Positions 9,001 to 12,000 of a stretch of DNA of 41,629 nucleotides are shown here, in pieces. The DNA is taken from contig JANNBC010000001.1 in assembly GCA_031385045.1 (NCBI GenBank), positions 1 through 41,629 of the forward strand. The letters run 5' to 3'. The position numbers are program-made. Position 1 is the first letter of the stretch, and every line of letters begins with the position of its first letter. The stretch comes from a bacterium. Lineage in GTDB: Bacteria; Bdellovibrionota_C; UBA2361; CALJRW01.

Positions 9001-12000
9001 TCTGCCGTTGCCAAAGAATCAGCGATCTTAGCCTCTAATACTTCCTCACTATCCATTACTAGAATGGCGAACTCTTTTATTCGTCCTGATAAATTTATTG
9101 GTTTGCATTTCTTTAATCCAGCTCCAGTAATGCCACTAGTTGAAGTTATTGCTGGACTAAAAACTAGCTTAACGACGAAACAGTTAGTAATTGCTTTTGC
9201 TCAAACCTTAGAGAAAGAAGCAATCACAGCCAATGATACTCCCGGATTTATTGTAAACAGAATCTTGTGTCCAATGATTAATGAAGCCATTTTCCTTTTG
9301 GCCGAGGGTAACAATGCTCAAGAGATCGATCAGGCATTAAAACTAGGTGCGAATCACCCAATGGGGCCCTTACAATTGGCTGACTTTGTAGGACTAGATA
9401 CTTTATTAAGAATCTTAGAAATTTACCAAGAAGAATTTGGAGAAGACAAGTATCGACCTTGCCCACTACTTCGCCAATATGTTAACGCTGGATGGTTGGG
9501 ACGAAAATCTGGCAAAGGTTTTTATACTTACTAGACTGCGGCCTCTAGGATCTTTCTTAGTAATTCACTATTATGAGAATGACCTGTCATGTTAGCAGTA
9601 ATCTTTCCAACGATTGGCCGACCAAGAAGATAAATATCCCCGATCATATCTAAGATTTTGTGCCTAACTGGCTCATCTGGAAAACGTAACTCTGAGTTAA
9701 TAACTCCATCTTCTCCAATTAGAACAAAATTATTAAATCTTCCACCTTGAGCTAAGCCTTGCTTCTGAAGGTAATCAATGTCTTTTACAAAACCAAAAGT
9801 GCGACAGCTAGCAATTTCATTTTGATAATTTTCAAAACTATCCATTTTAAAAATGTAATGTTGCTCCCCGATTGGTTGTTGATAATTTAAGGTGTAATCA
9901 ATGATTAGTTCTTCCGCCGGTTCTAAACGAATAAAGGCTTCACCCTTACGAACTTCAATAGTTTTAGTGACCATTAATTCGGGAATAGTTGCCGACTGCT
10001 CCAAGATTCCAACTTCTTGAAAGATCTTACAGAACTCAATCGCCGAACCATCCATTACAGGAACTTCTTCATTACACTTAATTAACAGATTGGTAATACC
10101 AGCAGCATGCAAGGCGGACATTAAGTGCTCAATTGTGGAGACTTGAGAATCTGCATTCTTAATTGTTGTGGCGTAACCAGTCGTGCTGACATAATTGACA
10201 TGAGCTGGAACAGCTTGCTTACTTCCAGGGCCAGCAAAGTGAATGCCAGAATTTTCAGGAAGTGGCTCCAAGATTAGTCCTGATTTACGACCGCTATGCA
10301 CACCTACTCCATAGAGAATACTACTACCTGCTAAGGTTTTTTGCTGTCTAGATTTACCAACAAAAAAATCATTTTGAAAAACATCACTAGTAATCTGGCA
10401 GCTCTGCTCAGATAAACTTTCAATTTCTGGCAAATTTCCCAGATTAGAGTTTTTAGCTGACAAGGCTCTGTTGACTACTTGTTGAATCACTAATAAATCA
10501 AGTGGCTTTTCAATAAAATCGATTGCTCCTAATTGTGTGGCTCGGACAGCTGTAGAAATAGTTGCATGACCACTAATCATCACAACAGGTAAAAGACTAT
10601 CTAGGTTACGAATCTTCTCGAGAGTTTCCATGCCATCCATCCCTGGTAGCCAAATATCTAGGAAAACTAAAGCTGGTGATTTCTCTTTAATAATTTCTAA
10701 AGCCTGATTGCCATTATTAGCATGACAACAACTAAGGCCAAGGTCTTCTAAGACATGGCTTAATGTTTCACAAATACTTTGTTCATCATCTACAATCAGC
10801 GCTAAATTATTATCCATAGTAAATTTCAAAAAATAATTACAAAAATAGTAATTTACGGCGAGTGTGAATAATGGATTTATCCAATTTCACACCGCAAAAA
10901 TAAAATAGATAGTGTTTCATTAAAACCTTTAATAGCGACAAAGAATTTTAAGAAACACTAAGCGTTACCGGTAAAAACTCGAATTGTCTCTGCCGTATTA
11001 GAAAACAATGTTGCCGCTCGATCGGGACCAACACTTACTAAAGAAATTGGACATGCAATAATCTCAGAAACTGTTGCTAAATAAAGTTTAACGGCAGCTG
11101 GAAGCTGGTGCCATTTAGTAAGAGCAGAAATATCTTCTTCCCAACCTGGTAACTCAATATATTCAGGAGTTACTAAAGCAAGATCGGCTGCTAAAGATGG
11201 AACATCATCTAACTTCTGACCATCTAAATAATAATTGATACAAACTTTAATTTTTTCCATTCCAGAAAGAACATCCAGTTTGGTCATGGCTAAAGTCTCT
11301 ACTCCATTTAAACGAACAGCACGCTTTAAGGCAAAAGTATCTAACCAGCCACAACGTCTTGGTCGTCCAGTCACAGTTCCAAACTCATGTCCCTTTTGAC
11401 GAAGCTCTTCTCCGGCCACACCATGCAATTCAGTTGGAAATGGACCTTCCCCGACACGGGTGGAATAGGCCTTAACAACACCTAAGATATTATCAATTGC
11501 TTTTGGACCAACACCACAGCCAATAGTGACTGCTCCTGCAATTGTGTTGGAAGATGTCACGTAGGGAACTGTTCCATGAATCTGATCTAGTAATGTGCCT
11601 TGAGCACCTTCAAAAACAATTTTTTGTTGATTTTTAAGGGCATGGTCTAAGATTAAGCTGACATTTCCGATGTAAGGACAAAGCTCTTTGGCGGCTAATT
11701 CAATATCACTCCAAATTTTATCAAAACTAATTTCTTCTGGATAATCTAAAACATATTTTAAAGTTTTATTAATTTTAACAATCTTTTCTTGAATTCGGGG
11801 CTTTAAGTCAGCAAGTTTAAATAATTCAGCCAAGCGAACCCCAGAGCGATCAACCCGATCTTCATAACAAGGACCAATCCCCTTGCCTGTTGTTCCAATT
11901 TTTTGATCTCCTCGACTAATTTCTCGAGCGAGATCAAGAACACGATGATAATCTAGAATTAGGTGGGAGTCCCGATCTAGGACTAATCTTTGAGGATTAA

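Follow-up and report, generated by a model that had tools for sequence, protein, structure and literature searches.

The 41,629-nucleotide stretch of DNA analysed here (the window) encodes a 428-residue protein in which an NtrX-type phospho-receiver precedes the deacetylase LpxC, which commits the cell to lipid A, an architecture suggesting that in this lineage outer-membrane synthesis is probably governed by a membrane sensor acting straight on the LpxC enzyme. The protein, REC-LpxC, would be the response regulator of an NtrY/NtrX-family system whose output is LpxC itself. Phospho-control of LpxC of some kind appears very probable, and the reading that we favour, at somewhat better than an even chance, is that the phospho-receiver of this regulator docks on LpxC and tunes its catalysis.

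The REC-LpxC gene (its product is labelled P0001, and the genome G000) occupies positions 9531..10817 on the minus strand and is recognized by Pfam and TIGR00325; an alternative TTG start in frame at 10829 would lengthen the protein by 4 residues. The first-pass annotation had described a complete receiver in front of LpxC in one 428-residue protein, the lack of a second LpxC and a common architecture among the 120 best homologues, and each of these statements was borne out: the open reading frame and the Pfam matches agree, P0001 is the sole LpxC match in a genome that is 94.9% complete, and PF00072 with PF03331 is found in 120 of the 120 homologues listed. A frameshift or a chimeric assembly as the source of the fusion was ruled out, because translation gives no internal stop and both domains lie in one open reading frame in 50 of the 52 genomes of the phylum that were fetched, the other two being cut at contig ends.

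The deacetylase domain (residues 159-424; 9546..10343, minus strand), delimited by Pfam, alignment and structure comparison, matches Pfam LpxC with an E-value of 1.2e-87 (PF03331, 294.3 bits against a cut-off of 27) and TIGR00325 lpxC with 259.4 bits (cut-off 187.25), and lacks a long C-terminal tail. Residues E230, H231, H386, D390 and H413 align to the site residues of solved LpxC structures, corresponding to E78, H79, H238, D242 and H265, which we take to be the zinc ligands and catalytic Glu/His of the E. coli enzyme, and these five together with K387 are kept in 126 of 126 fusions. The LpxC part shares the fold of the solved structures, with an rmsd of 1.3-2.1 Å in most comparisons, and AlphaFold2 models both domains with confidence (pLDDT 91.9 and 92.5). 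Both halves of REC-LpxC look functional.

The receiver half (residues 7-115; 10473..10799, minus strand; assigned by Pfam, alignment and tree) matches Pfam Response_reg with an E-value of 1.4e-29 and carries the residues of a phosphorylatable CheY-like receiver, namely an acidic pair (D10-D11-E12), an aspartate (D54), a Ser/Thr (S82) and a lysine (K104, followed by P105). The phospho-acceptor, which had been left unexamined, is predicted to be Asp54 (codon 10656..10658, minus strand). D10, E12, D54, S82 and K104 are invariant in the 120 listed homologues and D11 is found in 119 of them; in a more diverse set of 126 fusions, whose identity falls to about 31%, 125 retain D54 and all 126 retain S82 and K104. 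This conservation rules out a degenerate receiver in P0001. In one short fusion, P0266, Asp54 is replaced by asparagine; in the tree it is sister to the long form P0249, so that it appears to have been shortened independently and to have lost its phospho-site. The family that best describes the receiver is NF051870 (NtrX). The score against the full-length family is 115.8 bits, below the cut-off of 600, and a Pfam scan of P0001 found neither an AAA+ nor an HTH domain; P0001 therefore lies outside the NtrX family, from which it is derived. The best fold match is Brucella NtrX (4D6X; Z 22.4, rmsd 1.1), in a tie with other receivers that lie within 1 Z. The receiver tree, which has few columns and support below 95 and was built without the two weakest over-cut-off receivers of the genome, groups 65 fused with 21 NtrX-like receivers (SH-aLRT 92), apart from 13 other receivers of G000.

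Between the two halves lies a linker (residues 125-158; 10344..10445, minus strand), defined from the predicted fold, Pfam and alignment to longer relatives, which comprises a disordered hinge at about residues 126-136 and an ordered segment at 137-158; the AAA+ and HTH domains of the long relatives are found at this position. Directly upstream is purA (10958..12277, minus strand), which adjoins the fusion in 41 of 50 fused loci and is a conserved neighbour in the phylum that does not imply a functional link to REC-LpxC. A scan of the 140-bp intergenic region (10818..10957, minus strand) found no sigma54-type promoter pattern, and sigma70-like matches were not above chance. No cognate kinase gene adjoins REC-LpxC, its neighbours being purA and a convergent gene for a 3-hydroxyacyl-CoA dehydrogenase, with which it shares a 4-base overlap of the stop codons (9531-9534).

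Across the window's own phylum, which corresponds to one class in the collection, 96 genomes at least 85% complete were surveyed. LpxC is present in 95 of them, in 89 of these in frames of 430-526 residues, while the six shorter frames apparently lie at contig edges (two of the six were fetched); the fusion is thus near-fixed in this phylum. The earlier description of it as fixed in a large clade of Bdellovibrio-like bacteria applies there and does not extend to the phylum sampled around a Silvanigrellaceae genome, in which 52 of 61 LpxC frames are short and unfused (295-366 residues), six fused and three broken, so that the label 'Bdellovibrio-like' is valid only for the window's phylum. Further afield, fusions occur in records labelled Thermodesulfobacteriota, delta proteobacterium and Nitrospinota, in one Spirochaetota record, and among Atlas clusters in which Myxococcota and Binatota predominate. 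Four of six Nitrospirota genomes have the fusion in addition to an unfused lpxC. A REC-LpxC subtype set apart by a 10-residue insert is found at the Nitrospirota loci L004-L009 and at L003 and L226-L232, and the second copies together with the unrelated neighbourhoods of these genes suggest horizontal transfer of the insert subtype.

The partner kinase, also left unexamined in the first-pass annotation, now has a candidate. Among the 14 HATPase matches in the genome, a 739-residue protein (G000:C8:37043-39262) is a homologue of NtrY that scores 248-386 bits against the kinases encoded beside fused genes, the other kinases of G000 reaching at most 83. It has NtrY_N, HAMP, HisKA and HATPase domains and four predicted membrane segments. 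At the 30 best ntrY loci of the phylum, the HEIKN box of the kinase and the helix behind it match those of NtrX-partnered NtrY. The gene lies on another contig than REC-LpxC, in the order ruvB-DUF4390-ntrY (the DUF4390 match falling just under the cut-off), and no regulator gene follows it. An orthologue is present in 94 of the 96 genomes of the phylum, including genomes of 1.8-1.9 Mb, and G041 (85% complete) yielded none; among the 30 best ntrY loci no receiver is encoded within about 1.5 kb, while DUF4390 lies upstream in 28 and ruvB in 27. In the relatives L002, L010, L014, L017, L018 and L019, ntrY is adjacent to the fused gene. A sigma54 regulator at G000:C60:73407 was rejected as the partner of NtrY since in the receiver tree its receiver does not group with NtrX. 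As ntrY is unlinked in the phylum, the pairing rests on orthology and elimination, which make the NtrY kinase/phosphatase the likely partner of REC-LpxC. In a 1.7-Mb genome (G059) NtrY is shortened to 479 residues (L256, G059:C6), with the periplasmic and PAS regions apparently largely missing, and the fusion there keeps Asp54.

The relatives present a graded series of gene arrangements. In Desulfacinum (L016) lpxC, DUF4390, ntrY and ntrX are separate genes; in L014 and L018 ntrY is followed by a REC-AAA+-LpxC protein of 736-769 residues with an HTH-like segment, a type represented by at least 120 proteins or fragments; P0253 and P0259 are REC-HTH-LpxC proteins; and REC-LpxC either adjoins ntrY, as in L002 (ruvB-ntrY-REC-LpxC) and, in frameshifted form, in L010 and L019, or is unlinked as in the window. 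Locus L017 (6663-8831) resembles L014 and L018 with an in-frame stop between a receiver fragment and AAA+-LpxC, either a sequencing error or a real split. None of 131 long fusions has the GAFTGA motif or the Walker-B DE pair, while Walker A is found in 120 of them and the lid is kept; with GAFTGA and the acidic pair absent, these proteins should not activate sigma54 transcription.

Work on Desulfovibrio provides what is likely the ancestral counterpart of this series. In the available text of Rajeev 2011 (PMC3333781), D. vulgaris DVU2934 has no target other than lpxC. The DVU2934 operon includes the kinase DVU2931, and in Syntrophobacter lpxC lies directly upstream of the orthologous operon, an order also seen in L016, which belongs to the Syntrophobacter family. 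According to the portion available of a second study (PMC4045070), a mutant in the kinase Dde_3000 shows raised expression of lpxC alone, from a sigma54 promoter, so that this kinase would lower the activity of the activator. Synteny and promoter motifs suggest that DVU2934 and its kinase belong to the system seen in L016, and a sigma54-type pattern lies upstream of unfused lpxC in two of five genomes tested (a strict match in Halodesulfovibrio, a loose one in Caldimicrobium). In Rhodobacter, loss of NtrYX is described as raising lpxC 8.8-fold, indirectly (PMC7240162, in the text available). Taken together, this points to an ancestral state in which transcription of lpxC was sigma54-dependent and under an NtrY/NtrX-type system. 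REC-LpxC would have originated when LpxC was joined to an NtrX-type sigma54 activator that served lpxC alone, with sigma54 activation lost first and the AAA+ and HTH domains afterwards, and we infer that the receiver was inherited from a regulator that once switched on the lpxC gene.

A quick tree built from 127 LpxC domains places all 72 fused sequences in one group (SH-aLRT 96), together with three receiver-less short LpxC (P0285, P0297 and P0301) that could be fragments or have lost the receiver secondarily. A more careful tree, with 48 rows and without these three, separates fused from unfused LpxC with support of 99/93. The order from long to short forms is a parsimony argument, two short forms branching first in the tree. 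A single clade of short forms was rejected with P0266 included (AU p 2e-6); without P0266, P0294, P0375 and P0364 the p-value is only 0.042, for which reason only the losses of AAA+ in P0266 and in the REC-HTH forms are clear and repeated loss of this domain appears only partly supported.

This series also bears on the proposal of the first-pass annotation that phosphorylation had replaced the FtsH/LapB proteolytic control known from enterobacteria: what the relatives indicate to have been replaced is transcriptional control of lpxC, and nothing suggests an enterobacterial FtsH/LapB circuit in the past of this lineage. LapB exceeded the cut-off in none of 21 genomes, and neither the LapB zinc ribbon nor DUF3413 (YejM) was found in the 94.9% complete G000, where divergent TPR homologues are possible. 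Taken by itself, this absence is in keeping with the proposal. FtsH is present. Only four residues follow the LpxC match in P0001 against 29 in E. coli; its C-terminus, EAAV, differs from the ending of its 93% relative, and no conserved degron-like nonpolar tail was found across the 126 fusions.

In the mechanism that we favour, NtrY, modulated by the DUF4390 (PlrP-like) protein encoded upstream of it, would set the phosphorylation of Asp54; the receiver would pack on LpxC, with the outer side of the domain-I beta sheet as the probable contact surface, and would tune the deacetylase output, and hence the flux into lipid A, according to whether it is phosphorylated. The role of the upstream protein has precedents in the available parts of two reports, in which the Bordetella DUF4390 protein PlrP inhibits the phosphatase activity of an NtrY-type kinase (PMC13001219) and Caulobacter NtrZ does likewise (bioRxiv 2021.04.17.440287). 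Given phospho-control, analogy with the ancestral circuit makes it more likely than not that the phosphorylated form is the active one and that the NtrY phosphatase lowers synthesis.

The packing is suggested by a comparison of 38 short and 34 long fusions with 51 unfused LpxC, in which 'outward' is read from alternation and not from coordinates. Position 167 is hydrophobic in 97% of the short and 97% of the long fusions against 18% of unfused LpxC, and position 182 in 84% and 97% against 14%; on the domain-I strands, alternating positions at which unfused LpxC has polar residues carry hydrophobic or fixed residues in the fusions (also G180 and K247), and no fusion-specific change was seen on the domain-II strands examined. 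The AlphaFold2 pTM of P0001 was 0.76 and reached 0.80 with an alignment that included the long forms; for independent domains a rough estimate gives at most about 0.68. The excess is an indirect sign of a folded receiver-LpxC contact. The gained hydrophobic face could alternatively be covered by the linker or by a second subunit, or reflect shared ancestry, and inter-domain covariation gave no signal above shuffles (maximum z 5.3 against 4.4-5.1 in the shuffles; 310 sequences, effective number 127).

The missing covariation signal for a fixed interface would suit an arrangement in which phosphorylation of the receiver controls the stability or membrane localisation of LpxC, through a phospho-gated degron or a tether to NtrY, instead of its catalysis. 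Such an arrangement draws on the same conservation and kinase evidence as catalytic tuning, and the presence of FtsH, the disordered hinge at 126-136 and the control of LpxC in other bacteria by proteolysis or localisation (PMC12444477, in the text available) are in its favour. We nevertheless regard it as unlikely, given that a conserved nonpolar C-terminus is absent (three nonpolar end residues occur in 17 of 126 fusions) and that the fusion-specific hydrophobic face and the raised pTM fit a folded interface. Less likely still is that phosphorylation drives an NtrX/NtrC-like oligomerisation that activity follows, with no contact between receiver and LpxC of one chain. NtrX receivers form dimers, the hydrophobic LpxC surface is kept in the long forms too, where receiver and LpxC stand about 340 residues apart, and retention of Walker A and lid but not of catalysis in those forms is scaffold-like; known LpxC enzymes, however, act as monomers, and the pTM of the monomer exceeds the free-domain estimate. 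That the receiver is a passenger of the fusion or a mere folding aid, leaving LpxC constitutive, would accommodate the Asn of P0266, the receiver-less P0285, P0297 and P0301 (if these are not secondary losses or fragments) and the additional fusions of the four Nitrospirota genomes, but seems quite improbable when Asp54 has persisted in 125 of 126 fusions despite decay of AAA+ and HTH and an otherwise partnerless NtrY has been retained in 94 of 96 genomes, those of 1.8-1.9 Mb included. A reverse signal, in which occupancy of LpxC by substrate or product alters the receiver and this acts as a phosphate sink or modulator for NtrY signalling to other targets, merits very little credence: the HTH-like segment of the long and REC-HTH forms would allow a trigger-enzyme role there, but the short form lacks any DNA-binding domain, and none of the 13 further G000 receivers examined was of the NtrX type needed to relay the signal.

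With catalytic tuning by a docked receiver as the preferred reading, REC-LpxC can be set against known systems. Response regulators with enzymatic output include CheB and PleD/WspR. These likewise carry an N-terminal receiver on an enzyme, and phospho-control is presumed for REC-LpxC as well; their outputs are signalling enzymes, whereas that of REC-LpxC is the committed enzyme of envelope biosynthesis. The NtrY/NtrX systems (NtrYX of Brucella, Rhodobacter and Caulobacter; PlrP-PlrS-PlrR of Bordetella) have in common with it the NtrX-type receiver, an NtrY-type kinase (NtrY_N, HAMP, HisKA with HEIKN, HATPase) with a DUF4390 gene directly upstream, and a published tie to lpxC expression and LPS level. 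They differ in that the output here is an enzyme in place of AAA+ and DNA-binding domains, that the kinase and regulator genes are unlinked in the phylum, and that the effect of alphaproteobacterial NtrYX on lpxC is transcriptional and partly indirect. Closer to the presumed origin, the Desulfovibrio pair DVU2931/DVU2934 (Dde_3000/Dde_3003) is dedicated to lpxC alone and likely represents the ancestral state, although DVU2934 acts at the sigma54 promoter of a separate lpxC while REC-LpxC has no AAA+, HTH or such promoter pattern. Stand-alone LpxC enzymes (controlled by FtsH-LapB-YejM in E. coli, MurA in P. aeruginosa and Ght in Neisseria) share its fold and active site and, presumably, control at the protein level; here, in contrast, a predicted phospho-regulator is covalently attached, LapB and YejM were not found and the long C-terminal degron tail is lacking. 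The other known LpxC fusion, LpxC-FabZ (NF009667), has a C-terminal dehydratase instead of an N-terminal receiver, and P0001 scores 201 bits against that family, below its cut-off of 465.

The first-pass annotation had met no paper on an LpxC-receiver fusion, and our own search, covering few subscription journals and no supplements, again found no description of one. A 2025 review of LpxC control (PMC12444477), as far as its text was available, treats proteolysis, MurA, Ght and transcriptional control of a broad kind, and neither 'fusion' nor 'receiver' is among its words; in the accessible part of a preprint on domain combinations (10.1101/2025.10.16.682753) the LpxC-dehydratase protein is the only LpxC fusion mentioned. 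The combination of a receiver with an enzyme, the action of NtrYX on lpxC and an architecture visible in public databases are thus known, and the new elements are LpxC as the output and the transition that led to it. Control of LpxC outside the enterobacteria is largely open, and a phospho-switch covalently joined to the enzyme would add a new point of regulation to an essential step that is also a drug target. The intermediates, in which AAA+ has decayed or only an HTH or only the receiver is left, record the change from transcriptional to post-translational control. With a single kinase, a single periplasmic partner and a single enzyme as its proposed output, the system makes the signal of NtrY addressable in vitro. 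More tentatively, and a little short of an even chance, NtrY-family kinases with their DUF4390 partner may be ancient sensors of LPS or outer-membrane status whose loop was shortened in several phyla onto the phosphorylation and hence the activity of LpxC. In that case a phosphorylation-gated LpxC would be the functional counterpart of YejM-LapB-FtsH, a transcription factor could be traced as it became an allosteric domain of its target gene's product, and the unsettled signal of NtrY would have a single-enzyme readout.

Elsewhere in the window, five open reading frames (121-837, 7008-7436, 23531-24184, 30550-30861 and 32333-33895) gave no Pfam match. Positions 1160-3832 and 4066-6840 on the minus strand encode tandem cysteine-rich DUF4215-repeat proteins of 890 and 924 residues, whose N-termini are nearly identical and which have a Hint-like domain at the C-terminus, and a third DUF4215 protein (19929-22160) has no Hint match. 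Other members of the lipid A pathway found elsewhere in the genome are LpxB, LpxK, WaaA and an MsbA-type ABC transporter. LpxB is fused to this transporter in a 995-residue protein (G000:C54:148856-151843, minus strand, equivalent to L213:4857-7844) encoded beside lpxK and waaA, a second lipid A pathway fusion in the lineage; LpxB frames of about 970-1090 residues also occur in five other genomes (G001, G003, G004, G005 and G017).
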